32,261 nucleotides of DNA from Pirellulales bacterium (GTDB lineage: Bacteria > Planctomycetota > Planctomycetia > Pirellulales > UBA1268): the NCBI GenBank assembly GCA_964201845.1, contig CAXNGP010000001.1, forward strand, positions 1 to 32,261. Reading direction: 5' to 3'. The notes below the pieces were generated by a model. That model saw only the letters and a list, made by a program, of their open reading frames with translations, was not told the origin of the DNA and did no database searches. Of this stretch, positions 1 to 30,459 are shown piece by piece. The position numbers and the translations under genes were made by a program. How positions within the stretch are numbered: the stretch's first letter is position 1; every line of letters begins with the position of its first letter.

Positions 1-3000
1 CGAGTTGCAACTCGAAACGGGTCAGGCCCCGTGAGTCGGCCCCCCAGAGCCAGACGGCGTCGGGGCTCGTGTTCTGGTCGGCAGGGCTGCCGTCGAGCGG
101 GTTGACGAGCTGGGCGAACGGCTGGTTGAAGTCCACGCGGTCGATCGCGCCGCGGTCCATGAAGACGTTGTTGCCGAGGCCCGACAGATTCGTGACGCCC
201 GGGTCGTCGCTGCGGAGTTGGCCGTAGAGGTCCCGCTCCGGCGAGATGATCGGCGACGCCGGAATCCCGATCGGCGAGTTCACCTGCACGAAATCGTTGC
301 GATCCTGGAGCGAGTCGAGCGAGCTGTCGATCGCCCGCGACCCGGCCACGAGGTAGAAGTTGTTCTTCGACGGGTTCACGAACGGGTTCGAGGTCAGCGT
401 GATGGCGTTGTTCTCCGCTACGCCGCTGGCCCCCGTCGAGTTCCAGTAGGCCGACGTGCCCACCACGGTACGGCCGCTCGACGAGCCGTCGGCCGTGATG
501 CCCTGAGCGAGGTTCACGAACAGGTTGTTGAGCAGCGTGGGCCCGGCGTTGTCGGTCACCTGGATGCCCGTACCGCGGGCCGTTTCACCGCCGTAGATTG
601 TGTTGTTGACGATCCGGCCGAAGGGTACCGCCGCCACCGGCACGTTCCCCGTGTTCGGGTCGCCGCTGAACAGAATCCCGGCCAGCCCGGCCCGGGCCAC
701 GACGTTGTTGGCCACCACGGCCCCCGCCGCCAGCCGCTGGTTGTTGAGCGTCGGCAACATCCGCGGCGTGCCGGGGTGCGGCGCGTTGCTACCGCCGTCG
801 CGGGCAGCGGCATCGATCCGAATGCCATACTGCGAGGCGCTCGTGATGATGTTCCCATCCACGAGGAACTGCCCCTGCTCACGCGGCTGGTTGCCGTCAC
901 CCAACTTGGCGCCGAAACCACCGGTCGTGGACCGCTGCGCAATCAGCCGGTCGTTGGTGTCGATCGTCTCAGGAATCGTGGTGCCGTCGGGCAGCGTGAC
1001 CGACCCGAGTTCCGTGCCTCGGCGAATCTCGAGCTGGTACGGGCCGTTGAGCACCTGGGCAGCCACGGTGTCCGTCGGGCCGGGAGTGTTCAGGTCGAAG
1101 AACGTGGTGGCGGCCGCGGTGGCCCCGGTCACGGCCTCGCCCCGCTCCGCGAACCCGATCACCAAGTCGTCGACATAGAAGCCCTCGAACTGGTTGTTCT
1201 GGCCCCGCTCCGGGCTGTTGTAGTTGCCGGTGGTGCCCGCGAGGCCGGTGATGTCGTTGAGCAGGTTTCCGTTGCCGTCCTCCTGGGTCGCGTCGAACTC
1301 GCCGGCCGTGCTGAAGTCGAACCGCAGCCGGACGTCCGCCTGGCCGGCGAACTTGCCGAGGTCGACCCGAGCCTGCCGCCAGCTGCCGGTGTCGAAGAGC
1401 TCCTGGACGTGCTGATTGTCGATCAGCTGGTCGTTCGAGAGCTTCGACGACACCGACGTGAACGCCGGCAGTTCCGCGTTGCTCGTGTCGATGGCCGACC
1501 GCGTGGCGTTGTTGGTGGCCACGAGTTCCCAGGTGAGGCCCCCGTCGATCGAGGCGAGCACCCGGGCGCTGTCCCGCATCCCATCGGTATTACTGGCGGC
1601 GTTCTGCGTGGAGAGCCAGTAGTCGAAGTACAGCGTGGCCTTGTCGGTGTAGGTGTACCCCTGGAGGTTGAACGGGTTCGTCGTCAGGCTGCCGTAGGCC
1701 CCGCCGGGAAGGTTGTAGTTGTTATTGATGGCAGGATTCAAGCTGAGATCCTGCTGCCAAGTGGCGAGATTCGCTCCGTACTGGCCGTTCACGGGCGAGT
1801 AGCCGCCGTACGGAGGGTTCGCAGCCGCATACTGCTCGAAGCCAAAGTACATGCTCAGGCCGCCACCGCCGGCATCAGCACCCCGGCGCGTCGTGGGGTG
1901 CCACATGTTGAGGTCGAGCGGCGAGAAGGCCAAGCCGCGGGCTGCGCCGGCGCCCGATGCGATTGAAAATGCGTCCGCGATCGCGTCACCGTCGGAATCG
2001 AACACGTCCTGCAAGGCACCGTTGGTGTCGAAGCAATAGAGGTTGCCGGTGCCGTCGACGGCGAACAGGAAGTCGGCGTAGAAGCCGTCCTCGAGGTTCT
2101 GCGGGCCGACCGCGAGACCCTGAAATGCGATCGGATTGCCGTTGCCGTCGAGGATCGTGTCGATCACGTTCGTCGTGACCGTGAAGTTGCCGTCGTCGAT
2201 GCCATTGATCGTGAAGAACCGCCCCGTCGTGTCCACGCCGTAGAGCGTGCCGTTAAGCCACGCCATGCCCGTGGTGCGACCAACCGCATTGAGCGGCCCC
2301 TGAAGGCCCCAGTTCTGGAGATCCACGTAGGCTGAGGACCCGTTGGCGGGATCGGCGAGATAGAGGACCGACCGATTCGCCCCCGGATCCCATACCGAAT
2401 AGACGAGATCCTGGTAATCGGCCACACCCGCCCGCCGCCAGGCCACGGCATCCACGGCGTCCGTCTGGAGACTGCTGAACGCGAACGAGTAGGTGACGGT
2501 GGGAAGTTGGACGTCGGCCCCATTCACCGGCGCCGCCCAGCTGATCGAAATCAAACCGGTATCGAGGTCGATCGTCCCGGAGGGCGTGTTTCCGGTGGGC
2601 CCGTTGACGGAGACCTCCGGCCCGAACGTGAGCGGGAGCGTGGCCTGGAAGCCACCGGGCGTCGCAGTGAACGTCCAGGTGCCAGTCCGCTGCACGTTGG
2701 GAGTCACCGTCGTGTCGAGGAACGAGAGCCGGACCGAGCCGGTGATGGCGGCAGTCGGAGGAGGCACCAGGTCTTCCTGGGCGAGTTGGAACGTGGTGAC
2801 GTTGACCACTCCTGCCTGCCGGGCAGCCACGTTGGTCTGCGTGGTCTGGACAGGATCTGCGATCTGGTCGTTGCCGATGACGGTCACCGCTCCGGTCCCG
2901 GTGTCGACGAGGCCCAGTTGTCCGGCCGTGGTCGTGTTGCCGTTGACGCCCCGGTAGACGTACAGATTGCCGTCCGACCGCATGACCATGTCGCCCGTCG

Positions 3001-6000
3001 TCGTGGCGGGGCCGTAGTTGCCCACGAGCGTCGTCTCCACGCCGCCCCGCATCGCGTCAACCGTGACGAGCGAACTGCCCGTCATCACAAACAGCGTCAC
3101 GTCGGAGAGCGTGAAGGGCGTGACATAGGTCTCGAGGTCGGTCGTGTCGATCAGCGCTTCCTCGGGCGGAAGGCCCGTGCCGATCCGGTCGGTCACGATC
3201 CGGTCGACGCTGGCGATCGGCTCGAGCCGCAGGAGCGTGTTGGCGGCAGCACTGCCAAACGTGGCATTGAGCTGCGTCGGCAGCCGCTCGTTCGACGAGA
3301 TCGCCACGTAGTAACGAAGCTGATTGGCGGGATTGGGAGCAGTCGGCGGCAGGCCGGTGTCGCCGCCGCCACTGCCGGTCGGGCCGCCGGCCGTGAGGTT
3401 GACCGTGCCGATGAATGGATCGAGTTTGCCAATGGAGCCCTTCGACAGATCGTCGAAGTCGTTGCCCTGCGACGTGCCCGGCTGGTCATCGGAGACGTCC
3501 GAGTCGCGGCCGACGTAGAGCAGCGTGCCCGTCGAGTCGAACACCGAGATCGTCAGGTCGCCCCGGAACCCGTCCGCGTAGTCGATGTCGAACATCGTGG
3601 CCCACGAATACGGCCCGTCGTTGACGCCACCGATGCTCTGCAACTGCTCGTAGTTGAGCGCGAACGTGTACCAGTCGACATCCCCCTCGGCAGCGATCGT
3701 GCCGCCCACGCTCAGCGCACCACGATTGCTCTCGAGGACGTTGCCGACGTACTGCGCCGTCGCGAACGTGTTATTGTTATCGGTGGGGTTCTCGCCCGTG
3801 TCCGACACGAGCGGCGAGTTGCTCGGCAGTCCCTGAACGTCGATTCCGACCGTGGGATAGCGGACGTCGGCATACCGGACGGTGGAGCCGGGCTTTTCGT
3901 CCCGCTGCCGCAGCCGGATGCGGAGTTCGTAGCGGCCGCTCGTCGCACCGGCGTCGAGGAGCGCCGGGTTGGAGAGGTCGGAGCGGTACTGCGCCGCCGT
4001 CGTGGCGGCCACGGTGCCGTTCGTCACACCGGTCGCCACGGGCTCGTACCGCGGCTGGCTCCGAACACGCACGTAGTAGCGGTTTTGAACACCCTGGGCG
4101 CCCGGCAGGATCAGCCGCATGCCGGCGTCCCGGGCGTTCTGCGTGAAGTAGTCGCCACCGCGCCACGTTTCCTTGGCGAGCGTCTGGGCCGCGCCCGCGA
4201 CCGCCGTGAGCGCAGGCGTGCCGTACGAGTAACGCACCTCGATCGCAGTCTCGCCGATTCCACCGCCGCTGTAGGTGAGCGTGAGTCGGCCCGTCACGAG
4301 ATTTAGTGAGCCACCCGTGGCGTATTCGCCCGTGCCCCCCTGGGCAACGGGCGCCCCATTCGGCGTGCCCAGCAGGTCGCGGCCCAGAACGTTTTGGAAG
4401 GTGATCGCGCCGACGGCGTTCACCGAGAACGTCTGAATGGCCACTGGCACCGGTATCAGCCCCGGGAGGATCTCGTAGATCACGCCGCTGAGCGTGCCCG
4501 GCAGCAGACTGAACTCGCCCGTGGTCAGCCCATCGGGCGCGAACTGGTAGGTCACGCTCGTGCCGCCCACGGCGTCTTGCACGATCTCGCCCTGAGCCAC
4601 GCCCCCCTCCGCGACCGAATCGGCCGACCTGGCCAGCACGTTGCCCGCCGCGTCGAGAACCTCCACCATCGCATCGAGCGCGGGGCTCGTCTTGTCAAGG
4701 TCGATCCAGACCTCCGAGCCGGCGTAGCCTATGAACGTGAAGACGTCGCGGTCGGAGGCGTCGTCGAACGCCACGTTCCCATGAACCTCGAAGCCGAGCC
4801 GGCGATTCTCGTCGCCGCTCTTTTCCTGGGCCGACTCCCAGCTGTTGGTGCCGGTGGCGAAGTTCGGGGCCAAGACACCGAGGTTTTGGGCGTCGTTCGT
4901 GGTCGCGTTCGCGTCGATCCCCGCGGTATATGCCTTCTCGGCCTCGGTCAGGATGGTGACGTTGCGGTCGTTCGAGAATGGCAGGAACAGCAGGCTCCGC
5001 CAATCGCCGGCGGCCGGCACCGTGGCCGAGCCGTCGACGTTGGTGTCGGTCACCAACCGGCCGAGCGGATCGATGCTGGCACCGGCCGTGTCGTCCCGCA
5101 GCGACGTCAGGATGACGGGGAAGCTGGGCTGGCCCACCACCTGCACGGTGCCGCCGATCCGGTCGGCGATGTCGAGGTTCTCGCCGGCCGCCGTGAAGCC
5201 CGCCTCCGGCCCGGCGAGCTTCACCACCAAGCTGGCGTCAGGCCGGCTGAGAAGTCTCACACCCGTGGCCGTGTGGAAGTTTTGGACGACGATCTCATCC
5301 TGGAGCACGTGGACCATGTCGACGTCGTCCCAGACGCTCTCGACGGTGATCTCGCCGCCGCGCACGACCATCCCGGCGGTCGCCTGGCCCCCGACGCCGT
5401 ACGACAGCCGGTTGGCGCGGACGAGCGGCCCGAAGTTGTCGTCGTAGCCGGTGGCGCGGTCGATCCCGCCCGTGCTGCGGCCGGCGTCGCCCCGCTGCAC
5501 GTCCGCGAGTGCGTTGGCGTTGACGCTGATGACCGCCCCCAGGTTCGAGCGGAAGTCGTTCCCCACGATGATCGACTGCGACCCAAGCACGTACACGGTC
5601 GCCGCGTCGTTGCCGCCCCGGCCCGTGCGGTTCGACGAGGCCGTCCCGGCTGCGTTGTTCTCCACCCGGCTGTTGGCCAGCCGCAGGTCGCCCTGATGGA
5701 CCTCCAGCGCGTTGAACCGGTCGAAGCCGCCCTCGATCGGGGTCTCGCCGCCGCCGAACGCCAAGTAGGCCCGGTCGATGCTCGCCCGGGCGCCCGCGTT
5801 GACGATGATGCCGCCCCAGTCGCCGACCGTCAGCGTGCCGATCGCGCGGCCCACGGTGTCGAACTTGTCGGGCACGTTGCCGTTGGTGTCGAACGAGCCG
5901 CCGGCTCCGTAGCGGTTGTCGCCCAAGCTCGTGAAGATCACCGACTTGCCAGGGGCACCTTCGGCGATGAGTTGCGCGGTACCCCGCTCGAGTTCGATCC

Positions 6001-8935
6001 GCGAGCCCTGGAGCTTGACGACCACACCCGCGTCGAACGCCAGCCGTCCCGTCCGACGGGCCTGCTCCACGCCGCCGACCTCGACGTAGCCACCGGCGCC
6101 GCCGTTGATCACCAGGTTCTCCTGGATCACGTACACGATGTCGGTGCTCTTGAGTCGCGCCGGGACGTCGAGCCGATCGAGAGGCGTGCCAAACTGCGTC
6201 TCGATCTTGACGAACAGGCCGTTGACGGAGTTATCCGTCAGGCGGTTACCCCGCAACTCAGGTCCGACGCGGTCGCCAGTGTCCTCAAAGCTATTGGGCG
6301 TGGCGGCGATCCCGGCCCCGGCGCTGAACCGGATCCTGTTGAAGAGCACCGTCGGCCGGGTGCTCTCGAGCTGCACCGGCGCGTAGGAATCCAGCTGCGA
6401 ATCGACCCGCACCTGGCCGCCCCCGTAGCGGATGTCGGCGCCGGTGACCGAGTTGACGAAGGCCCGCCTCGACGCGGCATCGGAATCCTGCCGCAGCACG
6501 AGGCCACCCCACTGCCCCGACTGGACGGCCGGCCCGAAACCGTCGGAGTTGCCGCCGATGGTGTCGTCGTACCAGGACGTGAACGTGACCTGCGAGCCGG
6601 CGTACGAGCGGGTCGCCGGCACGCCGAGCACTTGGAGCGCGGCGCCCGCCCGCGACACGAGCTGCGACGAACTGCCGACATCGATGTTGGCGGCCCGTAG
6701 CTTGAACACGGCACCGCCGTCGATCATGACCGTGACGTTGGCCGGCACGTCGAAGGTGGCCCCGTCCGCGAGCGGCCGACTGGAGAGATCGGTGCCGATC
6801 TGATACGGAGCGGCCGCGGTGCCTGCGATCCGGATCAGCCTGGTCGATGGCTGCACAGCGCTCAGTGCGGCCTGGATCGTCTTGTAGGGATTGGCGAGTG
6901 TGCCGTCACCGCTTCCTGCAACCGGGCTTGACTTGTCGACGTAGATCGTGCTGGCCGACGCCGCGGCGTTGAACCAGAACCGGAACACGCCGCCCGCCAC
7001 CCCGTCTCGATCGCCGTCGACGGGCCTGCCAGAGAGATCGACGATCGTGTTCGCGGACGCGGACGCCGGCGTGAACCCGAGATTGAGCCTGTAGGCACCG
7101 TCGGTTCGGCCATTGGCGCCGGAGTCGCTGATGGCCGGGTCGAAGGCGGTATTGCCCGTGCTCGTGACCGCAACGAAGTAGTTGCCGGCCCCGAGATCCA
7201 GGCCGACGAACGAATCGCGGCCGTAGTAGTCGTCGTTGCGGGCCACGAGCGTCCGCACCGCCCGCCCGCCGACGACCTCCTCCTTGTAGAGGGAGATCAC
7301 CGTGTCGAGCCGGCTGGTGATCGGCTGACCCGGGCGGGCGACCACCGTCTCGGCGGTGAAGCGGCCAGCCTCGGCGAGCGTGAACCGGTAAACGTCGATG
7401 TCCGAACCATTGGGCGGATAAAGCTGCCGGAGGTGCTCGATGTCGTAGTCGCCGGGGAAGATCGGTTCGCCCCCGAGATCGGCGCCCATGATCGAGGGCA
7501 GGTCGTAGGTGTGCTGCAGGCCCAGGGCGTGGCCGATTTCGTGCATGGCCACCCCGAACCAACCGCCCCCGTACTCGCTGTCGCCCCAGTTGATGAGCGA
7601 GTTCATCAGCGCCCCGGCACCGCCACCGAGCCCGGCCACGGAGCCAGCCGGGATGTTCGGGGAGAAGGCCCGCAGGTCGCCCGTGGCCACCATCAGGGAC
7701 GGTACAAAGGGGTTGTAGTCGACCTCGACGAACCGCAGGCCCGATTGCAGGCTGAAGAGTTCGAAGATCTCCCGGGCCCGCTGCTTTTGGGCCTCGGTGA
7801 TCACGTTTTGCAGGTCGTTGCCCTGCGGATCCTGGCCGATCACATCGCGGAAGTCGTACCGCACGGTGGTGATGCCCGTGGCTTGATCGACGACCGCGAA
7901 CGCCGGCGTGCCGTGGGTGCCGCTGTCCACCGGAACGTCTCGTTGGCCGGGGGTATCGAGCGCACCCGGCTGGACGGGAAACTCGAGATTCCCCACCGGC
8001 GTCGGCAGCGTCGCCCTTGCATCAATCGAGGCATCGATCTGGACGCCCGCCGAACTCAGCGTGCTGAGATTGCGAGCCGTCGTGAAGCTCGAGTTGTCGT
8101 CCCCGCCCGCCGCGAACACCACCGGTGCCACGGCCGCTGCACCGCCGATCTCCAGCCGATACAGGCCAACGGCGTCACGAAGGGCCGCCCCGAAGAACAG
8201 CGTGGCCCGTCCCGTCGTCGGGTCGTACGTGACACCTGTGGGGCTTACGGCGGCCCCCTCGGCATTCGTCGCCGGATCGACCTGGATCAGGCGATAGAAA
8301 CCGCGGTTTTGGACCGCTGACGCCAGCAGCGGATCCTCGGTATTGAAGTAGACGTGGATCTGGCCGCGGGACTGGCTCAGAGGGCCCGAGGCGCCCCGGA
8401 CCACCGGTTGAGGCACAACGCCCACCACGAACGCGCCCAGGTCGAGCCGGACGTTCACCGTCGTCGCCGCAGCAGAGTCGGCCGGGGCCAGCGACCGCAG
8501 GCCGGCGCCGACGTTGATCTGGTACGAGCCGTCCGGCAGCGCCTCCTTGAACCGCACAACCACCTGGTTTTGGTTGGGCAAGTCGTCGACCGAGAGGCCA
8601 ACGTCCACGGGCCCACCACCCGCCGCGCTGACGATCGTCACGTTGCCGGCGAGTGTCGCCGGATCGATCCGCACTCCCGGGCTGAACCGCAGCGTGATCT
8701 GCTGCGGAGCCTCGCCGAGCGAGACGACCGCCGGGCTGGCATCCTTGACGTAGAACGGCGTCACGCTGTCGGCATAGGCGGCGACGAGGTCGAACGCCAT
8801 CACACGCCGGTGCTCGAGCCGTTCGGGTGGCGATGCGATTCCGCGCTGACGTCCGTGCCGGACCGCGCCCTGGCGCCGAACCCGACGCTTCCCAAACAGC
8901 CTGCCCAAGGACGACGAACGTGGTGATCTGCGCAT
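1..8935 (-). CDS. Giant secreted multidomain protein with a metzincin (M10-like) zinc-protease domain, PPC-like domains and parallel beta-helix modules. Partial: the 3' end lies beyond the left window edge.
   Basis: Missing from the ORF track because it runs off the edge. My reverse-strand translation from ATG 8935-8933 (alternative ATG 8800-8798) reaches position 1 without a stop, about 2,978 codons. All five long + strand ORFs here (218-1966, 2507-4306, 4394-6700, 7433-8320, 8354-8926) lie in the single codon-aligned antisense frame, the usual shadow of a GC3-rich gene on the other strand. Motifs: HEIGHALGLQH (7511-7543) with a downstream 'PSIMG' Met-turn candidate; PPC-like cores 'DIDVYRFTL' (~7385-7402), 'DRDVFTFIGY' (4721-4753) and 'GDVDWYTFAL' (3653-3685); beta-helix start 'IYVDKSSPVAGSGDGTLANPYKTIQAAL' (6860-6946). 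Confidence 0.85.
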   Translation of the reverse strand, partial: MRRSPRSSSLGRLFGKRRVRRQGAVRHGRQRGIASPPERLEHRRVMAFDLVAAYADSVTPFYVKDASPAVVSLGEAPQQITLRFSPGVRIDPATLAGNVTIVSAAGGGPVDVGLSVDDLPNQNQVVVRFKEALPDGSYQINVGAGLRSLAPADSAAATTVNVRLDLGAFVVGVVPQPVVRGASGPLSQSRGQIHVYFNTEDPLLASAVQNRGFYRLIQVDPATNAEGAAVSPTGVTYDPTTGRATLFFGAALRDAVGLYRLEIGGAAAVAPVVFAAGGDDNSSFTTARNLSTLSSAGVQIDASIDARATLPTPVGNLEFPVQPGALDTPGQRDVPVDSGTHGTPAFAVVDQATGITTVRYDFRDVIGQDPQGNDLQNVITEAQKQRAREIFELFSLQSGLRFVEVDYNPFVPSLMVATGDLRAFSPNIPAGSVAGLGGGAGALMNSLINWGDSEYGGGWFGVAMHEIGHALGLQHTYDLPSIMGADLGGEPIFPGDYDIEHLRQLYPPNGSDIDVYRFTLAEAGRFTAETVVARPGQPITSRLDTVISLYKEEVVGGRAVRTLVARNDDYYGRDSFVGLDLGAGNYFVAVTSTGNTAFDPAISDSGANGRTDGAYRLNLGFTPASASANTIVDLSGRPVDGDRDGVAGGVFRFWFNAAASASTIYVDKSSPVAGSGDGTLANPYKTIQAALSAVQPSTRLIRIAGTAAAPYQIGTDLSSRPLADGATFDVPANVTVMIDGGAVFKLRAANIDVGSSSQLVSRAGAALQVLGVPATRSYAGSQVTFTSWYDDTIGGNSDGFGPAVQSGQWGGLVLRQDSDAASRRAFVNSVTGADIRYGGGQVRVDSQLDSYAPVQLESTRPTVLFNRIRFSAGAGIAATPNSFEDTGDRVGPELRGNRLTDNSVNGLFVKIETQFGTPLDRLDVPARLKSTDIVYVIQENLVINGGAGGYVEVGGVEQARRTGRLAFDAGVVVKLQGSRIELERGTAQLIAEGAPGKSVIFTSLGDNRYGAGGSFDTNGNVPDKFDTVGRAIGTLTVGDWGGIIVNAGARASIDRAYLAFGGGETPIEGGFDRFNALEVHQGDLRLANSRVENNAAGTASSNRTGRGGNDAATVYVLGSQSIIVGNDFRSNLGAVISVNANALADVQRGDAGRSTGGIDRATGYDDNFGPLVRANRLSYGVGGQATAGMVVRGGEITVESVWDDVDMVHVLQDEIVVQNFHTATGVRLLSRPDASLVVKLAGPEAGFTAAGENLDIADRIGGTVQVVGQPSFPVILTSLRDDTAGASIDPLGRLVTDTNVDGSATVPAAGDWRSLLFLPFSNDRNVTILTEAEKAYTAGIDANATTNDAQNLGVLAPNFATGTNSWESAQEKSGDENRRLGFEVHGNVAFDDASDRDVFTFIGYAGSEVWIDLDKTSPALDAMVEVLDAAGNVLARSADSVAEGGVAQGEIVQDAVGGTSVTYQFAPDGLTTGEFSLLPGTLSGVIYEILPGLIPVPVAIQTFSVNAVGAITFQNVLGRDLLGTPNGAPVAQGGTGEYATGGSLNLVTGRLTLTYSGGGIGETAIEVRYSYGTPALTAVAGAAQTLAKETWRGGDYFTQNARDAGMRLILPGAQGVQNRYYVRVRSQPRYEPVATGVTNGTVAATTAAQYRSDLSNPALLDAGATSGRYELRIRLRQRDEKPGSTVRYADVRYPTVGIDVQGLPSNSPLVSDTGENPTDNNNTFATAQYVGNVLESNRGALSVGGTIAAEGDVDWYTFALNYEQLQSIGGVNDGPYSWATMFDIDYADGFRGDLTISVFDSTGTLLYVGRDSDVSDDQPGTSQGNDFDDLSKGSIGKLDPFIGTVNLTAGGPTGSGGGDTGLPPTAPNPANQLRYYVAISSNERLPTQLNATFGSAAANTLLRLEPIASVDRIVTDRIGTGLPPEEALIDTTDLETYVTPFTLSDVTLFVMTGSSLVTVDAMRGGVETTLVGNYGPATTTGDMVMRSDGNLYVYRGVNGNTTTAGQLGLVDTGTGAVTVIGNDQIADPVQTTQTNVAARQAGVVNVTTFQLAQEDLVPPPTAAITGSVRLSFLDTTVTPNVQRTGTWTFTATPGGFQATLPLTFGPEVSVNGPTGNTPSGTIDLDTGLISISWAAPVNGADVQLPTVTYSFAFSSLQTDAVDAVAWRRAGVADYQDLVYSVWDPGANRSVLYLADPANGSSAYVDLQNWGLQGPLNAVGRTTGMAWLNGTLYGVDTTGRFFTINGIDDGNFTVTTNVIDTILDGNGNPIAFQGLAVGPQNLEDGFYADFLFAVDGTGNLYCFDTNGALQDVFDSDGDAIADAFSIASGAGAARGLAFSPLDLNMWHPTTRRGADAGGGGLSMYFGFEQYAAANPPYGGYSPVNGQYGANLATWQQDLSLNPAINNNYNLPGGAYGSLTTNPFNLQGYTYTDKATLYFDYWLSTQNAASNTDGMRDSARVLASIDGGLTWELVATNNATRSAIDTSNAELPAFTSVSSKLSNDQLIDNQHVQELFDTGSWRQARVDLGKFAGQADVRLRFDFSTAGEFDATQEDGNGNLLNDITGLAGTTGNYNSPERGQNNQFEGFYVDDLVIGFAERGEAVTGATAAATTFFDLNTPGPTDTVAAQVLNGPYQLEIRRGTELGSVTLPDGTTIPETIDTNDRLIAQRSTTGGFGAKLGDGNQPREQGQFLVDGNIITSASQYGIRIDAAARDGGSNAPHPGTPRMLPTLNNQRLAAGAVVANNVVARAGLAGILFSGDPNTGNVPVAAVPFGRIVNNTIYGGETARGTGIQVTDNAGPTLLNNLFVNLAQGITADGSSSGRTVVGTSAYWNSTGASGVAENNAITLTSNPFVNPSKNNFYLVAGSRAIDSSLDSLQDRNDFVQVNSPIGIPASPIISPERDLYGQLRSDDPGVTNLSGLGNNVFMDRGAIDRVDFNQPFAQLVNPLDGSPADQNTSPDAVWLWGADSRGLTRFELQL

Positions 8936-10487: not shown

Positions 10488-11570
10488 ATGACCTTTTTTC
10501 CCTCCCGCGTTTGGCGTCCCCGTCGTTCGCGGCGTCGGCAGGCTCCGTTGCGGGGCGAACTGCTCGAGCGGCGACTTGCCTTATCGGTCTCCCCAAACCC
10601 CGGCGGCATGGTGGTCGAAGACGCCGCCTTCGCCCGGGCCGCTGCGCTCGTGAACGCGACTCCGCTCGAAGAGGCGCAGGCCATCCGTTGGGTCGTGCGG
10701 ATGTCGCCCGGCACCGACGTGGCGGCGGCCGCCGCGGTGGCGGGAGCCACCGCGACCCGGCCGACCGGAATCGTCGCCGACACGTTCATCTGGGAGTTTC
10801 CCCAGGCCGCGGCCGGATCGATCCCGGGAACGCTCTCGGCCGCGACCACCAATCGCTCGCATGGGCTCGTCGCAGCCTATCCACTCGTGGCTCGACAACA
10901 GCAGCCACGACTCGTGCCGAACGACCCGCTGTTCGTCAACCAGTGGCACCTGCGCAACACCGGCCAGGGCGGCGGAACTGCGGGCGAGGACGCGGATGTC
11001 ACGGGCGTGTGGGACGCCTACCTCGGCACCGGCGTCACGATCGCGATCGTGGACGACGGCCTGCAGCATGCCCATCCCGACCTCGTCTCGCACTACGTCG
11101 CCGCGGCAAGCTACGACTTCAACGACGACGATCCGGACCCGACTCCCATCAGCACCGACGCCCACGGCACGGCGGCCGGCGGCGTGGCGGCGGCGACCGG
11201 CAACAACGGGCTCGGCGGTTCCGGGGCCGCGCCTGGAGCCTCGCTCGCCGGCCTGCGGCTGATCGCCGGGCCCGCCGACGACCTGATGGAGGCGACGGCC
11301 CTCACCTACGCGCTGGCCGACATCGACATCTACAGCAACAGCTGGGGACCCGACGACAGCGGCACCCAGGTCTCCGGACCCGGCCCGTTGACGCTCGCGG
11401 CCCTCGAGCGGGGCGTCACCGAGGGCCGCGGCGGTCTCGGTGCAATCTATGTCTGGTCGGCGGGCAACGGCCTCGATAGCAACGATAATGTCAACTACGA
11501 CGGCTACGCGAACTCGCGGTTCACGATCGCGGTGACGGCGATCGACAACCAAGGTCGGCAGTCCTGGTAA
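10488..11570 (+). pseudogene. S8 protease fragment 1: N-terminal motif, propeptide, and Asp/His/Asn part of the catalytic domain; ends at the in-frame TAA
   Basis: Reads '...TAIDNQGRQSW*' at TAA 11568-11570. The same frame continues 'AEPGAAILVAAPSNGD...', which is the conserved S8 core. Confidence 0.8.
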
Positions 11571-13376
11571 GCCGAACCGGGCGCAGCCATCCTCGTGGCG
11601 GCCCCGTCCAACGGCGACACTCTGGGCATCACCACGACCGACCTCGTCGGGACGGCGGGCTACAACACGGCGACGTCCGCAGGAGGTGGTGACTACACCA
11701 ACACGTTCGGCGGCACCTCCTCCGCTGCGCCCCTCGTCTCCGGCGTCGTGGCGCTGATGCTCGAGGCCAACCCGAACCTCGGCTGGCGCGACGTTCAGCA
11801 CGTGCTCGTCGAGTCGGCCCGGCGAAACGATCCCACCGACGCCGACTGGGTGCAGAACGGCTCCGGCCGCTGGGTGAACCACAAGTACGGCTTCGGCGCC
11901 GTCGATGCGGCGGCTGCCGTGGCCCTGTCCCAAACATGGACGGACGTCGGAGCGGAGGTCCGGGCTTCTTCGGGCACTCGAACGGTCGGCCTGGCGATCC
12001 CGGACAATAATCCGACCGGTGTCAGCACGTCCTTCACCATGTCGGCCGACCTCGCGACGGAATGGGTCGAGGTGACGTTCTCGGCCACGCATTCCTACCG
12101 GGGCGACCTCGAAGTGGTGCTGACATCGCCGACGGGCACGCAGTCGGTGCTGGCCGAGCAGCGCGGCGACTCCAACGCCGACTACGGCAGTTGGAAGTTC
12201 ACCTCGGCGCGCCACTGGGGCGAATCGTCGGCCGGCACGTGGACGCTCACCGTTCGTGATCTCAGCGCCGCCGACCTCGGCACGCTCGATTCCTGGTCGC
12301 TCGACGTCTACGGCACGAACCCCACCGACGTCGTGCCCACCACCGTTGCCATCACGAGTGATGCCGGTGGCACACTCACGGCCGGCGGGTCGGCCACGGT
12401 CATGTTCACCGTCAGCGAGGCCGTCAGCACGTTCACCGGCGGGATGGTGACGGCGACCGGCGGCACACTCTCCGGGTTCGCGGGCTCCGGAACCACCTAC
12501 ACAGCGACCTTCACGCCGGCGGGAGGCTTCGAGGGCGTGGCCACGATCGCGATCGGCGCTGGGGCCTTCACCAACGGCGCCGGCCAGCCGAACGAGGCGG
12601 CCGCCCTCGACATCGCCGTCGACACGGTCGTCCCGACCGTGACCGTGGCGACCACCGCAGGGAGCACGCTGCTGGTCGGCTCGACCGCCGCGGTGAGCTT
12701 CGCACTAAGCGAACCGGCAGTCAGTTTCAGCCTCGCAAGCGTGACCGTCACGGGCGGCAGCCTGGCCGGGCTGACGGGCTCGGGAACCGCGTATGCCGCC
12801 ACATTCACGCCCGCGGCCGGCTACCAGGGAGCCGCCACGATCGGGGTGGCTGCGGGCGGCTTCACCGACCTTGCCGGCAACGACAACGCGGCGGGCAACA
12901 CGATCGCGTTCACGGTCGACACGGTCGCGCCCACGCTGACGATCTCGCGATCGGGGAGCGGAACAGTCACGCTCGGCGCTGCGGTTACGATCACGTTCGC
13001 CGCGAGCGTCGCGACCACCACCTTCACTGCGGCGGACATAGGCGTCACCGGAGGCTCGCTGTCGGGATTCGCCGGCACGGGCAGCCTCTATACGGCCTCG
13101 TTCACGCCGGCACCTGGATTCCAGGGCCTGGCCACGATCGCGGTCGCGGGCGGCAGATTCACGACCGGGCTGGGCAACCCCAATCAGCCGGCGTCGCTGT
13201 CGTTCCCCGTCGACGTGGCACCGCCGACGCTCGCGATCACCCGGTCGGGGTCGGGCACGCTGCTGGCCGGCACGGTCACGACGGTCACGTTCACGCTCAG
13301 CGAAGTCGGTACGACGTTCGGTCCCGGTGGCGTGGCCGTCTCGGGCGGGACGCTTTTGGCGTTCGCCGGGGGGGGG
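11571..13376 (+). pseudogene. S8 protease fragment 2: catalytic Ser, P-domain and Ig-like repeats 1-4; meaningful up to the G9 tract
   Basis: The track ORF 11595-13754 reads as a real protein up to '...GGTLLAFAGGG'. After 13376 it becomes Arg/His-rich nonsense. Confidence 0.8.
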
Positions 13377-14125
13377 CACGACCTTCACTGCGACGTTCAC
13401 TCCCACCGCGGGTTTCGAGGGCCTGGGGTGGATTGCCGTGGCTGCCGGCGCGTTCACCGACCTCGTAGGCCAGCCCAACGAGGCGGCGGTACTCGAGTTT
13501 CCCATCGACAACCTCGCGCCCACCATCGCGGTGAGTTGGGCGGGGCCGGCGCCGCTCGTCAGTGGTGCTGCGGCGACGGTCTTGCTGAGCCTCAGCGAAC
13601 CGGCTGCCGCCTTCGGCCTGGCAGCCATCGAGGTGGCCGGCGGGACCCTCGTGAATCTGACGGGCGCGGGCACCGCGTTCACCGCCACCTTCCTACCCGC
13701 GGCCGATTTCCGGGGAACCGCCACGGTCACCGTCCCGCCCGGTGCGCTCACTGACATCGCCGGCAACCGCAACCCGGCCCCGGCGGCGGTCGCGATCCCG
13801 GTCGACACCGTGGCGCCGTTGATCGCCGGCTTCCGGGCTTCGCCGGCAACCGCGCGGCTGGGTATCGGCGACGCGATCGTTCTGGAGGCCGATTTCTCCG
13901 AGCCCGTCACGCCCGGCGCCAGCCTGACCGTCCTGCTTGACACCGGTCGCCACGTTTCGCTCGCCGTCGATGCCCTCGGCCTGACGGCCCGCGGCGTCTA
14001 CGTCGCCCAACCAGGTGACGTGAGCGGCGACCTCGACGTGGTCGCGGTGTCGGCCAACGGCTTGCTCCGCAACGCCGCCGGCAATCCGCTGGCCACGACG
14101 CTGCCGCCGCCTCCGGCGGGGCTCG
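12324..14125 (+). repeat. Six tandem coding repeats (about 98 aa, 294-297 bp) encoding bacterial Ig-like domains
   Basis: Unit starts ('VDTVAPT'-type) at 12324, 12618, 12915, 13209, 13504 and 13801. Each unit carries '...SEP...F...VTGG.L.G..G.G..YTATFTP..GF.G...I.V..G.FTD..GN.N'. Confidence 0.85.
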
Positions 14126-14808
14126 CCGGCCGACACGCGGTGGTCGTGGACGCGGCGGTCCGGTTCGTCGCCAGCGGCCTGTTCGGAATCGATCCCGCGG
14201 TCGTTCGCGACGCGAGATCGCAGTTCCGCCACGTGCCGCTGCGGTTCACGACACCCGTCACCGGCCTCGTGCTGGCGGCGTTGCGGCTGGAACTCAACGG
14301 CCAGCCGCTGTCGCTGCAGGGCGCGAGGCTCACCGGATCACGGGATTCGTACGTGCTCTCGCTCCCCGTGACTCGCGTCAATCCAGTCGGAATCTACACC
14401 CTGTCAATCGCCTCGACCGGCGCAGTGCGGGCGACGAGTAACGGGGCCACGGCCACGACCAGCGTGGCGCTCCGCTGGGGCTTCGGACGCAGCGTGGGCA
14501 TGGTTCCCGCCGCGCCCCCGCTGGTGACGCCGCTCGAGGTGGTGCGGACGGCCCGCCGCACGTCGGTGGTGCTCGCCTGGCAGCCGGCGGCCGCCAATGC
14601 CGGCGGACCGGTGAGCCGCTATCTGCTCGAGTACCGGATCGCAGGCACGCAGCGGTGGATCGCCGTGCGGAACTCGGTGCCGGGAGGCGTGAGCCAGACG
14701 ACCGTCAGCGGTCTGGCACTCGGCCACGCATACGAGTTCCGGGTCGCCGCGGTCAATGCCGCGGGCCAAGGGGTATTCGGGGTCTCGGCGCCGTTCCACG
14801 TGGCCTGA
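13377..14808 (+). pseudogene. S8 protease fragment 3: rest of Ig-like repeat 4, repeats 5-6, a linker and FN3
   Basis: The track ORF 13327-14808 becomes repeat-like exactly at '...GGGTTFTATFTPTAGFEG', continuing the repeat interrupted in fragment 2. Confidence 0.8.
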
Positions 14809-14833: not shown

Positions 14834-15856
14834 CTACAGCGCCCCGGGCTTGAGGCCCTTCCGCGCCCCGTTGAACCCGAACGGCGTCGGCTCGAACGTG
14901 CCCACCACGTCGACGCAGGATTTCGAGGGAATCTTGTCGTCGAGGCCCACGGCCCAGTAGCAGGCGTTGACGAGCATCCGCCGCGTGCCCTCGGCCACCA
15001 TGTCGGTCGACGAGCCCATCGTGGTCGTGAACACCCGGCCGCTCGGGCCGCCGTCGACCGCGTAGGTCTTCGTCCAAGCCACCGGCATCATCGGGTCGTT
15101 CTTCTTGCCCTCCACGGGCGCGGAGTCGGGCGTCATCCCGGTGAGCACCTGCCCGAGCACCAGCGGCTTCGAGTCGCCCGGCAATGGCGGGCGGACACCG
15201 TACACGTCGGTCGGCCCCCAGATGTCGCCGTCGGCGATGCCCCGCAGGATCGGGTGATCCTTGGCGTCGGGCGCGATCAGCCCACGGGTGCTCTCCTTGC
15301 CGTGATGGCCGTGATGGCTGATCCACTTCTCCCCGAGCACGAGCCGGCCGAAGCCGTCGACCCACTCCTTCTTCTCGCCGCCATACCCGTTGCCGTAGTG
15401 GGCGTAGGTGCGATCCTTCGGGATGTTGAAGGCGTGAGTGGCCGTCCGCATCCCGATCACGGGCTTGCCGGCCCGGAGGTAGTCGTCGATGTGCTTCATC
15501 TGCTCGTCGGGCAGATTGCGGAACCGCGTGGCGATCACCATCAAGTCGGCCTTCGCGAGCGCCTCGAGGCCCGGGATGTTGTTGCCCGTGTTGGGGCTGA
15601 TCTCGCCGGTCTTGGGGTCGATCGCATACAAGACGGTGCAGGTGAAGCCGTGGTGGGTCGCCAGGATCTTCGCCAATTGCGTGAGCGCCTCCTCGCTCCG
15701 GTACTCCTCGTCACCGCTGACGAGCACGACGTGCTTGCCCTGCCCCGGCCCGGCCGCCCCCGGCACCTGGAGCCACGGGTCATCTGCCCACAGCGGACGG
15801 GCGGCGACGTGGGCGAGCATCAGGGCGACCAACAGCGGGCTCAGCAGGCGGTTCAT
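14834..15856 (-). CDS. Secreted ThuA-like (class-I glutamine-amidotransferase-like fold) protein
   Basis: The ORF is open to 15949, but ATG 15856-15854 gives a classical signal peptide 'MNRLLSPLLVALMLAHVAARPLWA'. The body ('KHVVLVSGDEEYRSEE...ATRFRNLPDEQMKHIDDYLRAGKPVIGMRTATHAF') resembles ThuA-domain proteins, recognised from memory. Confidence 0.7.
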   Translation of the reverse strand: MNRLLSPLLVALMLAHVAARPLWADDPWLQVPGAAGPGQGKHVVLVSGDEEYRSEEALTQLAKILATHHGFTCTVLYAIDPKTGEISPNTGNNIPGLEALAKADLMVIATRFRNLPDEQMKHIDDYLRAGKPVIGMRTATHAFNIPKDRTYAHYGNGYGGEKKEWVDGFGRLVLGEKWISHHGHHGKESTRGLIAPDAKDHPILRGIADGDIWGPTDVYGVRPPLPGDSKPLVLGQVLTGMTPDSAPVEGKKNDPMMPVAWTKTYAVDGGPSGRVFTTTMGSSTDMVAEGTRRMLVNACYWAVGLDDKIPSKSCVDVVGTFEPTPFGFNGARKGLKPGAL

Positions 15857-19007: not shown

Positions 19008-19403
<396 letters not shown>

Positions 19404-19414
19404 AAACCAAGAGG

Positions 19415-19972: not shown

Positions 19973-20056
19973 AAGTTGCGGGACTGGGCTTCGCTGTCTG
20001 GCTTCGTGCACCCTAAGCCACACGTGGGAGCAAAAGCGGCGTGCAGGCGACGGGTA

Positions 20057-27174: not shown

Positions 27175-28260
27175 ATGGCCTCATCTTGCCTGCCTCACGC
27201 CACCTCGCTCGCGGCCGCTCTCGCCGGCGTCCTCCTGGCGACGCCGGCTGCGCCCGCCGCCGAGCCCGGCCCCGACCTGCTCCCCACAGTGGGCTCGATC
27301 GAGCGGCTCGACCCCCGTTTCGACGCGCTCGTGCCGCCGGGCGCCGTGATCGAGGTCCTCGCCTCGGGCTTCGCCTGGAGCGAAGGCCCGGTCTGGGTGT
27401 CGAGCGACCGCACGGGGCTGCCCGCCGGCAGCCTGCTCTTCTCCGACATCCCGCACAACCGCATCCACCGCTGGCAGCCGGGCCAGGGTCTCGACATCTT
27501 CATGGAGCCCGCCGGCTTCACCGGTCCGGCCGGCTACGGCAACGAGCGGGGCTCCAATGGACTCACGCTCGATCGCGAAGGCCGGCTCATCTGCTGCGAG
27601 CACGGCGATCGGCGCGTGTCGCGGCTCGAGCCCGGCGGGGGCAAGAAGACGCTCGCCGACTCCTACCGGGGCAAGCGGCTCAACAGCCCCAACGACGCGG
27701 TCGTCCACTCCTCGGGCGCGATCTATTTCACCGACCCGCCCTACGGCCTGCCGAAGGGCTGGGACGATCCGCGCCGCGAGCTCGACTTCTGCGGCGTCTA
27801 CCGGCTCGCGCCCGACGGCACGCTCACGCTCCTGTGCGACACCATGACCCGCCCCAATGGGATCGCCCTCTCGCCCGACGAGAAGACGCTCTACGTGGCG
27901 CAGTCCGACCCTGCGGCCCCGATCTGGCAAGCCTTTGCCGTGGCGGCCGACGGAACACTCGCCGACGCCACGACCGGTGGCCGCGTGTTCTTCGATGCCA
28001 CCGCGTTGGCGAAGACCCGCCGCGGCCACCCCGACGGCCTGAAGGTGGACGCCGCGGGCAACCTGTTCGCGACCGGGCCGGGCGGCGTGCTCGTGTTCGC
28101 CCTCGATGGCACGCACCTCGGCTCGCTCTTGACCGGACAGGCCACGGCCAACTGTGCCTTCGGCGAGGACGGCCAGACGCTCTTCATCACGGCCGACTCG
28201 CTTCTCTGCCGCGTGCGACTGACGACCAAGGGACGGCTGCCCGGGCCCGACGCCGACTGA
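27175..28260 (+). CDS. SMP-30/gluconolactonase/LRE-family beta-propeller protein, secreted
   Basis: 361 aa with signal peptide 'MASSCLPHATSLAAALAGVLLATPAAPAAEP'. Family motifs: 'EGPVW...LLFSDIPHNRIHRW', 'SNGLTLDREGRLICCEHG', 'LNSPNDAVVHSSGAIYFTDPPYG', 'RPNGIALSPDEKTLYVA', 'PDGLKVDAAGNLF'. Confidence 0.85.
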   Translation: MASSCLPHATSLAAALAGVLLATPAAPAAEPGPDLLPTVGSIERLDPRFDALVPPGAVIEVLASGFAWSEGPVWVSSDRTGLPAGSLLFSDIPHNRIHRWQPGQGLDIFMEPAGFTGPAGYGNERGSNGLTLDREGRLICCEHGDRRVSRLEPGGGKKTLADSYRGKRLNSPNDAVVHSSGAIYFTDPPYGLPKGWDDPRRELDFCGVYRLAPDGTLTLLCDTMTRPNGIALSPDEKTLYVAQSDPAAPIWQAFAVAADGTLADATTGGRVFFDATALAKTRRGHPDGLKVDAAGNLFATGPGGVLVFALDGTHLGSLLTGQATANCAFGEDGQTLFITADSLLCRVRLTTKGRLPGPDAD

Positions 28261-28314: not shown

Positions 28315-30459
28315 TCACCGCCGCGGGCCCGTGGTCGGTGCGTTCACCGCGGCCGCCGATGGGAGTCCGGCGGCGAGTGCCGCGAAGGCGACGGCCCGTG
28401 GCAGCGGAGCCCCGGGTCGGGCACCCGGGCCGGCAGCCGGCGGCTTCGGGGCGACCGGCGGCTTGGGCGCGACGGGCGGTGCGACGGCGAGGCCCACGTC
28501 GAGGCCGCGGGTTTCGCCGCCCTTTGTCAGCCCCACGATCCGGCTCGTGACCGCCGCGCCGCCGGCCGGCGTCACGACCACGCGGTACGACCCCAGGTCG
28601 AGCCGGTCGAAGCTGTAACCACCGCGGGCGTCGGTTCGCGTGCTGGCGACGGTCGCCCCCGTGGCGTCGACGAGCGTGACCAGCGCGGCGGCCACGCCCG
28701 CCTCGATCGACTGGCGAATCCCGTCCCCGTTGCGGTCGCCGAACACCGTGCCGCCGATGGAGGCCCGGAACAGAAACACGTCGGACTGCAGGTTCGTGAG
28801 GCCGGTGTTGCGCCGGATCACGTCAGCGAGCGTCGTGGCCTGGATCGACCGCACCGCCGCGGCGGGCAGCACGTTCTGATACCAGTAACGGTCGCCGTCG
28901 CGGAGCCGCCGGAACTGGTCCACGATGATCCGGGTGAAGGTCGCCCCCAGGCTCGAGCCCGGCAGATGCTTCTCCGCCAGGCCGCCGACCCACAGGTCGA
29001 CCTTGTCGACGGAGCCGTAGGTGGCCTCGAGCGCCTGCTGCACGGCCGGGGTGGCCGAAATCTGGGCGAAGCTGGTCACCCGGGGCAGGCCGTAGGCCTC
29101 CCGCACCGTGTTGTAGTCGGGCAGGCCGTGGTCGCGGCCGCGCTGGATGTTGAGGGCGGCCAGGTCGAATCCGCCTTGGCCGGGAGCGCCGAACAGAAAG
29201 TTTCGCACGTCGTCGATCACGACGGCGTCCATCTCCTGGGCCCGATCGCTCGCCAGATACTTGAGGATCGGGTCGATGCCCGTCGCGGCCACCACATCGA
29301 TGTTGAAAAAGGCGTCGCGGAGGCTCAGCGCGTCGCGGACCTCGTTGCCTTGGTTGTCGAGGAAGCCCACCTCGTCGCCCAGGAGGCTGTGACCGAACCG
29401 GTAGGCCGCCGTGGCAAACTCGGTGCTGATGCCGGCGTCCACGTTTGGCCGATAGCCGCGGTACGACTGCATCGCGACCGTCGCCGGGGTGCCCTGGCCG
29501 AGGATCGCCGGCAGAAACTCCGTGTAGGTGATGTCCTGCAACTCGGCGACCACCAGCCGCCGGGCGTGCTGGAAGATCTGCTCGTCACTCCAGCCGGGAT
29601 TACGGACCGCGGCATCGGCGGCGATCCGGTTGTGCTCGCGCACGAACAGCGTCTGCAACGCCAGCAGCTGGGGGTTTTCATTGGCCCGCACGTCGCCGGC
29701 CAGATACAGCTCCGCATCGGGCGTCAGGCCGATCGTGGCGTTGGGCAGGCCGGCCGTGTTGAACGGCAGGAGGTTGCCGGCGCTCGTCTTGAGTCGGCCA
29801 CCGGCAAACTCCCGCAGCGCCGCCGCCCGCGTCGGGTCCGATCCGTAGATCTGCGAACCGTCGATGTAGGCCGTCAGCGAGTTCACCTGCTGCCGGGGCG
29901 TGGTCGTGCCCGTGGCCGGGTCGTAGGCGGTGCGCAGGTTCGGCATCGTCCTCGTGCCGGTGCCCGTGGGGTCGAACCAGGGATCGCCCGCGGGAATGCT
30001 GATCGAGATCAGTTCGGCGGGGACGGCCGAATCCGAGAGGGTCAGGTCGTGGTCGAGAAACTGGCCCCACGCGTAGACAAAGCCGCTCATGTCGCGGGCA
30101 TTGGTGATCCCGCCGGCCGGGCTCGCAAAGATCTGGTTGCTGATCAGCCGCTCACCGGGACGATCCGCCCCCGACAGGCTCGCGAGCCCGTCGCCATAGG
30201 CCGCCGAAGAGACGCGCAGGAACGGTTCGCCCGTGCTGCCCCACTCGGGGTGGTTCAGGTTGTTGCCGGTGCCGTCGAGCGATTGGACGGGCAGGGGCAA
30301 CGGTGCGACGGCCAGCAGGGCGCGGGGCTCCAGTCGCTCAGGCGTCGACAGCCGTCGCGAACGGCCGACGCCCTGGTGGCGGCCGGCCCGGGAAGTGTTG
30401 CATTTTGCATCGCGCGTTGCATTGTGCGTCGATCGGTCCGTGTGATTGCTGGCGTTCAT
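28315..30459 (-). CDS. Animal-type haem peroxidase (peroxidase-cyclooxygenase superfamily) with a C-terminal SdrD-B/Cna-B-like domain and a Pro-rich tail
   Basis: ATG 30459-30457 is preceded by GGAGGA, although the ORF is open to 30678. Motifs: 'SLDGTGNNLNHPEWGSTGEPFLR', 'ARDMSGFVYAWGQFLDHDLTLS', '...YRFGHSLL...', '...DLAALNIQRGRDHGLPDYN'. C-terminus: 'GGTVFGDRNGDGIRQ...TDARGGYSFDRLDLGSYRVVV', then 'PPVAPKPPVAPKPP'. Confidence 0.85.
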   Translation of the reverse strand: MNASNHTDRSTHNATRDAKCNTSRAGRHQGVGRSRRLSTPERLEPRALLAVAPLPLPVQSLDGTGNNLNHPEWGSTGEPFLRVSSAAYGDGLASLSGADRPGERLISNQIFASPAGGITNARDMSGFVYAWGQFLDHDLTLSDSAVPAELISISIPAGDPWFDPTGTGTRTMPNLRTAYDPATGTTTPRQQVNSLTAYIDGSQIYGSDPTRAAALREFAGGRLKTSAGNLLPFNTAGLPNATIGLTPDAELYLAGDVRANENPQLLALQTLFVREHNRIAADAAVRNPGWSDEQIFQHARRLVVAELQDITYTEFLPAILGQGTPATVAMQSYRGYRPNVDAGISTEFATAAYRFGHSLLGDEVGFLDNQGNEVRDALSLRDAFFNIDVVAATGIDPILKYLASDRAQEMDAVVIDDVRNFLFGAPGQGGFDLAALNIQRGRDHGLPDYNTVREAYGLPRVTSFAQISATPAVQQALEATYGSVDKVDLWVGGLAEKHLPGSSLGATFTRIIVDQFRRLRDGDRYWYQNVLPAAAVRSIQATTLADVIRRNTGLTNLQSDVFLFRASIGGTVFGDRNGDGIRQSIEAGVAAALVTLVDATGATVASTRTDARGGYSFDRLDLGSYRVVVTPAGGAAVTSRIVGLTKGGETRGLDVGLAVAPPVAPKPPVAPKPPAAGPGARPGAPLPRAVAFAALAAGLPSAAAVNAPTTGPRR

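Follow-up and report, generated by a model that had tools for sequence, protein, structure and literature searches.

The closest described counterpart of the element considered here is the planctomycete N-terminal motif RRLxxExLExRxLLA, a putative novel export signal according to Studholme (2004, as quoted in PMC8567305), which is represented in Pfam by the family Planc_extracel ('Planctomycete extracellular', PF07595; Studholme, Fuerst and Bateman 2004, as cited in PMC8567305). In Tuwongella immobilis 52 genes encode a variant of this motif; proteomics detected 20 of the products, including eight that were seen in the sodium dodecyl sulphate (SDS) fraction alone, and the variant is present on eight of the ten longest proteins of this organism (PMC8567305). 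A related model, the 24-residue 'LEPR-XLL domain' (NF012209, model name LEPR-8K), is available in NCBIfam. Three N-termini of this kind are described here, encoded in a 32,261-nucleotide stretch of a Pirellulales genome (contig CAXNGP010000001.1 of assembly GCA_964201845.1; hereafter the window) by the genes of a kexin-like subtilase, a giant metzincin-like protein and an animal-haem-peroxidase family protein. The three N-termini are new members of a known, mechanistically unsolved signal class, and not a new kind of signal. They probably function as divergent planctomycete extracellular signals that replace the classical signal peptide on exported proteins, and that would be cleaved and most likely Sec-borne.

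The enzyme assignments, proposed in a first-pass annotation of the window, agree with the Pfam matches of the proteins, and the N-terminal sequences and motif coordinates given there were reproduced exactly by re-translation and with a regular expression (regex). Each N-terminus consists of a basic leader followed by the motif:

10488..14805, + strand: kexin-like subtilase gene; Pfam Peptidase_S8, P_proprotein and Big_12 repeats, FN3-like C-terminal end
10488..10556, + strand: subtilase leader, residues 1-23, MTFFPSRVWRPRRSRRRQAPLRG; arginine-rich, equivalent of an n-region, ATG at 10488
10557..10586, + strand: subtilase motif ELLERRLALS, residues 24-33; regex match
2..8935, - strand: giant metzincin-like gene; HExxHxxGxxH zinc site, weak Pfam Peptidase_M10 match, Beta_helix
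8825..8935, - strand: metzincin-like leader, residues 1-37; arginine-rich, ATG at 8935
8795..8824, - strand: metzincin-like motif ERLEHRRVMA, residues 38-47; regex match
28315..30459, - strand: animal-haem-peroxidase family gene; Pfam An_peroxidase, E = 1.4e-160, C-terminal SdrD_B / CarboxypepD_reg domain
30340..30459, - strand: peroxidase leader, residues 1-40; basic and polar, ATG at 30459
30310..30339, - strand: peroxidase motif ERLEPRALLA, residues 41-50; orthologue alignment and weak PF07595 match

The window copies share with PF07595 the phylum, the N-terminal position and the half ExLExRx[LM][LM]A of the consensus, and they are located as expected for this family, with the motif starting at residues 24, 38 and 41 of large extracellular-type proteins. 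Unlike the family consensus, they appear to have lost most of the upstream RRLxL half; Arg at -4 and Leu at -2, which are common in the wider set of motif proteins, are partly present. Because this upstream half is only partly retained in the three copies, their scores against the hidden Markov models (HMMs) are low. With a gathering score of 25.5 bits for PF07595 and a cut-off of 17 bits for NF012209, synthetic consensus peptides used as controls score 32.6 and 33 bits, respectively. The peroxidase N-terminus reaches 11.3 bits on PF07595 (E = 0.31), the subtilase and metzincin-like N-termini give no PF07595 match at E-values up to 10, and none of the three matches NF012209 at E-values up to 10, either as long or as short fragments. 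As a consequence, such copies are missed by standard annotation. Planctomycete homologues of the subtilase score 27.7, 24.9, 22.7 and 18.3 bits on PF07595 and thereby span the gap, which identifies the window motifs as divergent sub-threshold members; orthologues P0024 and P0134 score 16.2 and 14.1 bits on NF012209. With the latter family the window proteins share the N-terminal location on very large proteins and the LEPRxLL core, which appears as LEPRALL in the peroxidase (where LEPRALLA is matched exactly), as LEHRRVM in the metzincin-like protein and as LEPRLAL in P0274, an intact relative of the subtilase with the motif ELLEPRLALS. The NF012209 family name also covers proteobacterial RTX giants, which the window proteins are not.

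The literature and the homologue comparisons support the first-pass view that this is a recurrent planctomycete N-terminal motif and a probable targeting signal. A role in export is supported; the signal is not newly recognised, since the curated models PF07595 and NF012209 already exist. It was also stated correctly that no pathway has been defined experimentally: the literature calls the signal putative, and neither signal peptides nor export or secretion systems are mentioned in a 2025 review of the phylum.

The motif is real and far exceeds chance expectation. For the N-terminal 60 residues of 20 genes, about 2e-4 matches to the strict regex are expected, which corresponds to a Poisson probability of about 1e-12 for three or more matches, and simulated six-frame windows contain 0.003 matches each, against four observed. 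The fourth match (15557-15586, + strand) lies antisense to a ThuA gene, is non-coding and is regarded as noise. As the regex was derived after the fact, conservation provides a stronger test than this estimate. In an alignment of 50 peroxidase orthologues Glu41, Leu43, Glu44 and Arg46 are the only invariant residues among the first 60; the other residues in this region vary freely, and the conservation of the motif equals that of the catalytic core. The leaders of more than 100 planctomycete peroxidase orthologues are of different lengths and sequences, and all of these orthologues retain the pattern [ILVM]-E-x-L-E-x-R-[SAT]-[LMV]-[LM]-[AS]-[AV]. Similarly, the metzincin-like orthologues with an intact N-terminus retain [LMV]E.LE.RR[VL][ML]AFD behind leaders of variable length and sequence, and the motif is kept in the planctomycete relatives of the subtilase. 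Alignment of additional homologues thus strengthens the similarity of the N-termini instead of dissolving it. Different codons are used for the conserved residues (GAG 22 times and GAA 18 times for Glu, five different Leu codons and five different Arg codons), indicating that selection acts on the peptide and not on the DNA or RNA.

The freely varying codons also rule out a DNA- or RNA-level element, such as the CTCGAG palindrome in the Leu-Glu codons. A strongly amphipathic helix is not supported, the hydrophobic moment being only 0.4-0.9 on the Kyte-Doolittle scale. AlphaFold2 modelling of the peroxidase with the 50 orthologues is uninformative with respect to the motif; the mean predicted local distance difference test (pLDDT) score is 52, and the N-terminal 98 and C-terminal 42 residues score below 50.

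An artefact, in which wrongly assigned start codons conceal ordinary signal peptides or in which the similarity arises by chance in high-GC sequence rich in Arg, Leu and Glu, would gain some plausibility from the 68% GC content of the window, at which Arg, Leu, Ala and Glu are common, and from the regex match in the non-coding antisense frame. This explanation is already refuted. The in-frame stretch from the previous stop is short or polar for each of the three genes: a stop lies 10 codons upstream of the subtilase ATG, the 32 in-frame codons that separate the metzincin-like ATG from the preceding stop encode a polar stretch, and no upstream start adds a hydrophobic segment to any of the three, so that correction of the starts does not reveal an ordinary signal peptide. 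The low chance expectation and the invariance of the motif residues in more than 100 orthologues despite varying codons exclude the remainder of the argument.

The motif is strictly bound to the N-terminus, and all but one of the contigs that carry it are labelled Planctomycetota. A loose regex gives 38 matches in 852 kb of planctomycete DNA versus one in 398 kb of other DNA, the latter located near a C-terminus. In every match whose position could be assigned, the motif follows an ATG at a distance of 2-67 residues, nearly always with more than 200 residues downstream; three of the 38 have no upstream ATG in the fragment, one of these being a short open reading frame (ORF) that is probably noise. 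A profile search of 1.84 billion representative proteins, based on a 32-column alignment, yields 16 matches at E ≤ 1e-3, all within residues 3-81; this number is small because the motif is short. The motif occurs in Planctomycetia and in at least one Phycisphaerae contig, and the relatives of the window proteins are labelled Planctomycetia or Planctomycetota. The leaders, of which 117 distinct motif-type examples were compared, have a median length of 34 residues (range 5-67) and a median net charge of +6, with 23% Arg and Lys and 4% Asp and Glu.

A few individual cases require comment. Locus L060, labelled Alcaligenaceae and with 49% GC, is the sole peroxidase locus with the motif that has a non-planctomycete label, and may be mis-binned. 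Loci L007 and L045 bear 'Candidatus Kuenenia' labels and encode motif peroxidases that are 65-67% identical to that of the window; they were not counted as support for its occurrence in anammox bacteria (Brocadiia), as their GC content of 67-68% suggests that they are probably mis-binned Planctomycetia contigs. The protein P0261 (625 residues), found in the search of representative proteins, has the leader-motif unit twice, at residues 28-56 and at about 105-135, which reflects either a fused or wrongly called start or a duplication of the signal within the protein.

The domains that follow the motif comprise haem peroxidase, S8 protease with prodomain, metzincin, DUF11, FG-GAP, Calx-beta and dockerin-like repeats. 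No cytoplasmic-type domain is found on the motif proteins, including the additional ones encoded in the locus flanks, and the motif is accordingly not a feature of cytoplasmic-type proteins. One family of about 400 residues (L038:17952-19172, +; L043:696-1955, -; L052:15549-16676, +) combines the N-terminal LExR motif with a C-terminus in which 'AYP' is followed by about 16 hydrophobic residues and a basic tail of the RHRRK type. Apart from a sub-threshold Planc_extracel match in L052, no Pfam domain is found in this family. Its C-terminus looks like an anchor signal of the sortase or exosortase type, a layout that requires translocation of the N-terminal bulk across the inner membrane, with stop-transfer. 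The Pirellulaceae-type peroxidases (L036, L038, L043, L047 and L052) contain dockerin-like DVNxDGxxSPxDAL repeats upstream of the enzyme domain, which lie between motif and enzyme where the motif is present (L047 lacks it by the rule used); these repeats are consistent with an extracellular, scaffold-bound location.

Classical signal peptides are present in the immediate vicinity of the three genes, as noted in the first-pass annotation for the ThuA, SMP-30/gluconolactonase, YHYH and sugar-binding lipoprotein genes, the last with the lipobox ..VAASGC.. :

14837..15856, - strand: ThuA-like gene with classical signal peptide, N-terminus MNRLLSPLLVALMLAHVAARPLWA; Pfam ThuA
27175..28260, + strand: SMP-30/gluconolactonase gene with classical signal peptide; Pfam SGL, hydrophobic core LAAALAGVLL

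The absence of a hydrophobic core from the motif N-termini, which had been presented as a contrast internal to the window, is clear across homologues and modest within the window itself. The best 10-residue mean on the Kyte-Doolittle scale ranges from 1.7 to 2.2 in the three proteins and from 2.0 to 2.6 in five neighbours with classical signals, whereas 115 motif-type N-termini have a median of 1.19 for this best 10-residue value, versus 2.91 for 115 subtilase homologues that lack the motif. The motif itself has a mean hydrophobicity of about zero and contains three charged residues. An unbroken hydrophobic stretch of about 7-15 residues behind a short basic n-region, as in the h-region of a Sec signal peptide, is absent; the longest run free of Asp, Glu, Lys, Arg, Asn, Gln and His comprises 7-12 residues. 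Inspection of the three N-termini shows neither a Cys after the motif, as a lipobox would require, nor, despite the presence of Arg-Arg pairs, the S/T-R-R-x-F-L-K context or h-region of a twin-arginine translocation (Tat) signal.

A scan for peroxidase homologues, with one genome per species, yielded 80 loci. The motif is found at 33 of 55 loci labelled Planctomycetota and at one of 25 otherwise labelled. At 15 of these 25 a hydrophobic signal peptide is recognised by a simple rule, and several more are recognised by eye, including signals of the lipoprotein type in Anaerolineae; the Saprospiraceae homologues combine a Sec signal peptide with the C-terminal domain of the type IX secretion system (T9SS). 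At least seven planctomycete peroxidase loci also encode a classical signal peptide. Most non-planctomycete homologues of the kexin-like subtilase likewise have a classical signal peptide at the position of the motif. When the enzyme start R[ST]xDG is used as anchor, the motif tail ...LEPLEQRNLLAA/DLRSIDG (the slash marks the aligned boundary) is in register with classical AxA/ cleavage sites, as in ...LLLPAALRA/EDRSYDG and ...NNMMA/QENRSIDG. In L006 the subtilase prodomain begins directly behind the motif, and in the peroxidases the motif is followed by a variable Pro/Ala linker. These alignments show the motif to be positionally interchangeable with Sec and lipoprotein signal peptides.

The similarity to Sec and lipoprotein signals extends to the basic N-terminal stretch and to small residues in the register of the cleavage site. 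The motif class differs from them in its much longer leader and in the absence of a hydrophobic core, the place of the h-region being occupied by three conserved charges. Tat signals also combine an arginine-rich N-terminus with a conserved motif before the cleavage site, but the motif proteins have no S/T-R-R-x-F-L-K sequence with h-region, and giant multidomain passengers are unlikely to cross the membrane in a folded state. The accessory Sec (SecA2/SecY2) signals of the serine-rich adhesins of Gram-positive bacteria resemble the planctomycete signal in having a long basic extension, a conserved motif and reduced hydrophobicity, and in being attached to very large surface proteins; there the motif routes the adhesins to a specialised Sec branch. 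Unlike the motif class, the accessory Sec signals keep a glycine-rich hydrophobic core, and their motif is KxYKxGKxW. To our knowledge, no SecY2 is known in planctomycetes.

On the basis of these comparisons we infer an export function, a cleavage site and Sec dependence. In the proposed mechanism the basic leader of variable length would act as an extended n-region, the block [hydrophobic]-E-x-L-E-x-R would replace the hydrophobic core as a sequence-specific recognition element, and the tail x-[LM]-[LM]-[AS]-[AVG] would provide the c-region and the cleavage site. The nascent or unfolded protein would be recognised via the motif and moved across the cytoplasmic membrane, most likely by SecYEG with a planctomycete-specific recognition step, or by a Sec-associated route. 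The leader would then be cut just behind the LLA or MMA tail, releasing the prodomain or mature enzyme to the periplasm or cell surface. A route through SecYEG is favoured by the stop-transfer layout of the 400-residue family, by the register with signal-peptidase sites and by the giant, presumably unfolded passengers.

Several observations weigh against a cleaved, Sec-borne signal. All window copies fail the thresholds of both curated HMMs, and no experiment in the literature shows export, cleavage or the translocon used. We know of no Sec signal peptide that tolerates a hydrophobicity near zero together with three charges, so that recognition by plain Sec would be unexpected. In addition, five of five PEP-CTERM-like proteins in the planctomycete loci, two of which are peroxidase paralogues, have classical Sec signal peptides and none has the motif. 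Their ORFs are located as follows:

L024, from 906, + strand
L041, from 540, + strand
L065, from 4383, + strand
L043, from 4925, reverse-complement strand
L054, from 6579, reverse-complement strand

Small as this sample is, it hints that the classical signal and the motif cannot simply be exchanged where downstream sorting is concerned, and that their routes may differ. Finally, an N-terminus of the LEPR-XLL type is reported on a giant Vibrio RTX/serralysin protein of about 8000 residues, which points to type I secretion (PMC10868602).

The Vibrio protein is among the observations that would be accounted for if the motif marked the substrates of a dedicated route distinct from general Sec. Such a route might be a type-I-like one-step secretion, with the N-terminal motif serving as recognition, leader or retention element, or a planctomycete-specific translocase, for instance a secondary SecA_DEAD / HlyD / Peptidase_M50 module. 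Many motif carriers are giant calcium-binding repeat proteins of a kind usual among type I substrates (PMC8567305), and Calx-beta and FG-GAP domains occur on the motif proteins compared here. In some planctomycetes a secondary SecA_DEAD protein is encoded beside HlyD and Peptidase_M50 genes, and a rearranged SecA_SW domain is found in the canonical planctomycete SecA (PMC4452313). The three conserved charges in N-termini that have no hydrophobic core, and the pairing of PEP-CTERM tails with classical signals only, give this idea a certain probability, as does the conserved extreme C-terminal motif of the peroxidase clade described below. A dedicated route nevertheless appears unlikely, since the motif tail is in register with the signal-peptidase sites of classical homologues and since the secondary SecA is reported in some planctomycetes only, whereas the distribution of the motif includes Planctomycetia as well as at least one Phycisphaerae contig. 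Secretion of the type I kind, with the C-terminus first, clashes with the C-terminal stop-transfer-like helix and basic tail of the family in L038, L043 and L052. Moreover, the subtilase and the closer metzincin-like orthologues end in a compact FN3-like domain instead of an RTX-type or unstructured C-terminal signal (the peroxidase may have a C-terminal secretion signal of another type); the window proteins have no RTX Pfam matches, and no ABC, HlyD or TolC genes are found by Pfam within the window. A search of plasmids with the LEPR-XLL consensus (tblastn), which sought RTX-linked examples, gave no match. Val is frequent at the putative -1 position, which is incompatible with processing of a double-glycine (C39) leader and rules out that analogy.

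In a further explanation the motif is not itself an export signal, but an uncleaved N-terminal retention or anchoring element that holds already exported proteins at the envelope. N-terminal retention modules of this kind are known on type I adhesins (LapA-like). The residues that follow the motif in the metzincin-like orthologues (AFDLVAAYA) are conserved, as if they belonged to the mature protein, and the motif proteins of Tuwongella are enriched in the SDS-only, envelope fraction (PMC8567305). It is hard to reconcile with such a function that these proteins have no other export signal, so that the N-terminus must also supply export, that the motif replaces classical signal peptides in homologues instead of accompanying them, and that the sequence behind the motif in the peroxidases is the variable Pro/Ala linker. 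Retention as the sole function is therefore very improbable, and a cleaved export signal remains the preferred interpretation.

The conserved C-terminal motif of the peroxidase clade was found at the opposite end of the protein:

28318..28401, - strand: peroxidase C-terminal tail, PRAVAFAALAAGLPSAAAVNAPTTGPRR; clade-specific conserved 'AAFA...basic end' motif

The tail follows the pattern '..[LA]AAFA[AGS][LI][AG]..', succeeded by 5-25 polar residues and a basic end (PRR/KKK). In the 50 peroxidase orthologues Phe692 is invariant and Ala693 is at least 90% conserved, and no Pfam or NCBIfam model matches the tail. The same tail is present on three ORFs near peroxidase genes (L004:2173-6894, L006:6354-8171 and L011:8161-11010), two of them Calx-beta-like and one a subtilase with a Calx-beta domain. 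It may represent an undescribed second, C-terminal sorting tag. There is no support for the view that motif proteins in general also have a C-terminus of the 'hydrophobic plus basic end' type, as such an end occurs on seven of 37 complete motif ORFs compared with 10.6% of 606 control ORFs; the AAFA tail is specific to its clade and not general to motif proteins. It is conceivable, if rather doubtful, that LExR directs proteins to a dedicated route for export or sorting in planctomycetes, one that is separate from the usual recognition of Sec signals and is based, for instance, on the phylum-specific rearranged SecA or on the secondary SecA_DEAD/HlyD/Peptidase_M50 module, and that in the clade of the window LExR is paired with the AAFA-x-L...basic-end tag. 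The tag would in that case direct a later step, for example passage of the outer membrane or surface attachment. Such a pairing of LExR and AAFA would have an analogue in the Bacteroidota, where homologues of this peroxidase combine a Sec signal peptide with a T9SS C-terminal domain.

New in comparison with the described signal class are the three sub-threshold members, the analysis of the swap across phyla and of its register, the selection at the protein level and the clade-specific C-terminal motif. Giant surface proteins and exoenzymes are numerous in planctomycetes, and in a large share of them the motif takes the place of a recognisable signal peptide; standard predictors and curated HMMs consequently under-call planctomycete secretomes. 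Since 2004 the question has been how a signal with three charges and no hydrophobic core brings about the membrane passage of proteins with as many as 10,000 residues. The four invariant residues, the predicted cleavage point, the natural swaps of motif and Sec signal within one family and the candidate C-terminal partner motif offer experimental handles on this question. That a truly dedicated export route lies behind the motif is on the unlikely side, but if true it would be of high interest.

The three genes themselves differ in their state of preservation. The peroxidase is a protein of 714 residues. The metzincin-like ORF runs past the end of the window, so that its C-terminus lies outside; in another assembly (L081) the product has 3509 residues with fn3 domains, and the zinc motif in its orthologues is HEIGHALGLQH. 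The subtilase gene, with a product of about 1440 residues, is interrupted by a TAA in frame (11568-11570) and by a frame change near 13.2-13.4 kb within the Big_12 repeats. The TAA replaces a Tyr codon, as is evident from a comparison with the intact relative P0274 of 1638 residues (QSWYAEPG, versus QSW-stop-AEPG in the window). The same truncated product of 360 residues is called in two other assemblies (L081 and L082), which indicates that the stop is probably real in this population and not an assembly error.

A very similar FN3-like C-terminus (..Y.FRVAA....G....... followed by the stop) terminates both the subtilase (14700-14805, + strand) and the closer metzincin-like orthologues (L084-L087 and L093), and a C-terminal module appears to be common to these neighbouring exoenzymes. 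Elsewhere in the window, a tRNA-Met gene (19008-19080, + strand) is followed by a stretch of lower GC content at 19100-21200 (57-60% versus 68%), whose genes comprise an AraC-family regulator (20057-21166, - strand) and two ORFs with no Pfam match (19415-19972, + strand, and 21197-22486, - strand). This stretch beside the tRNA-Met gene may be acquired DNA.

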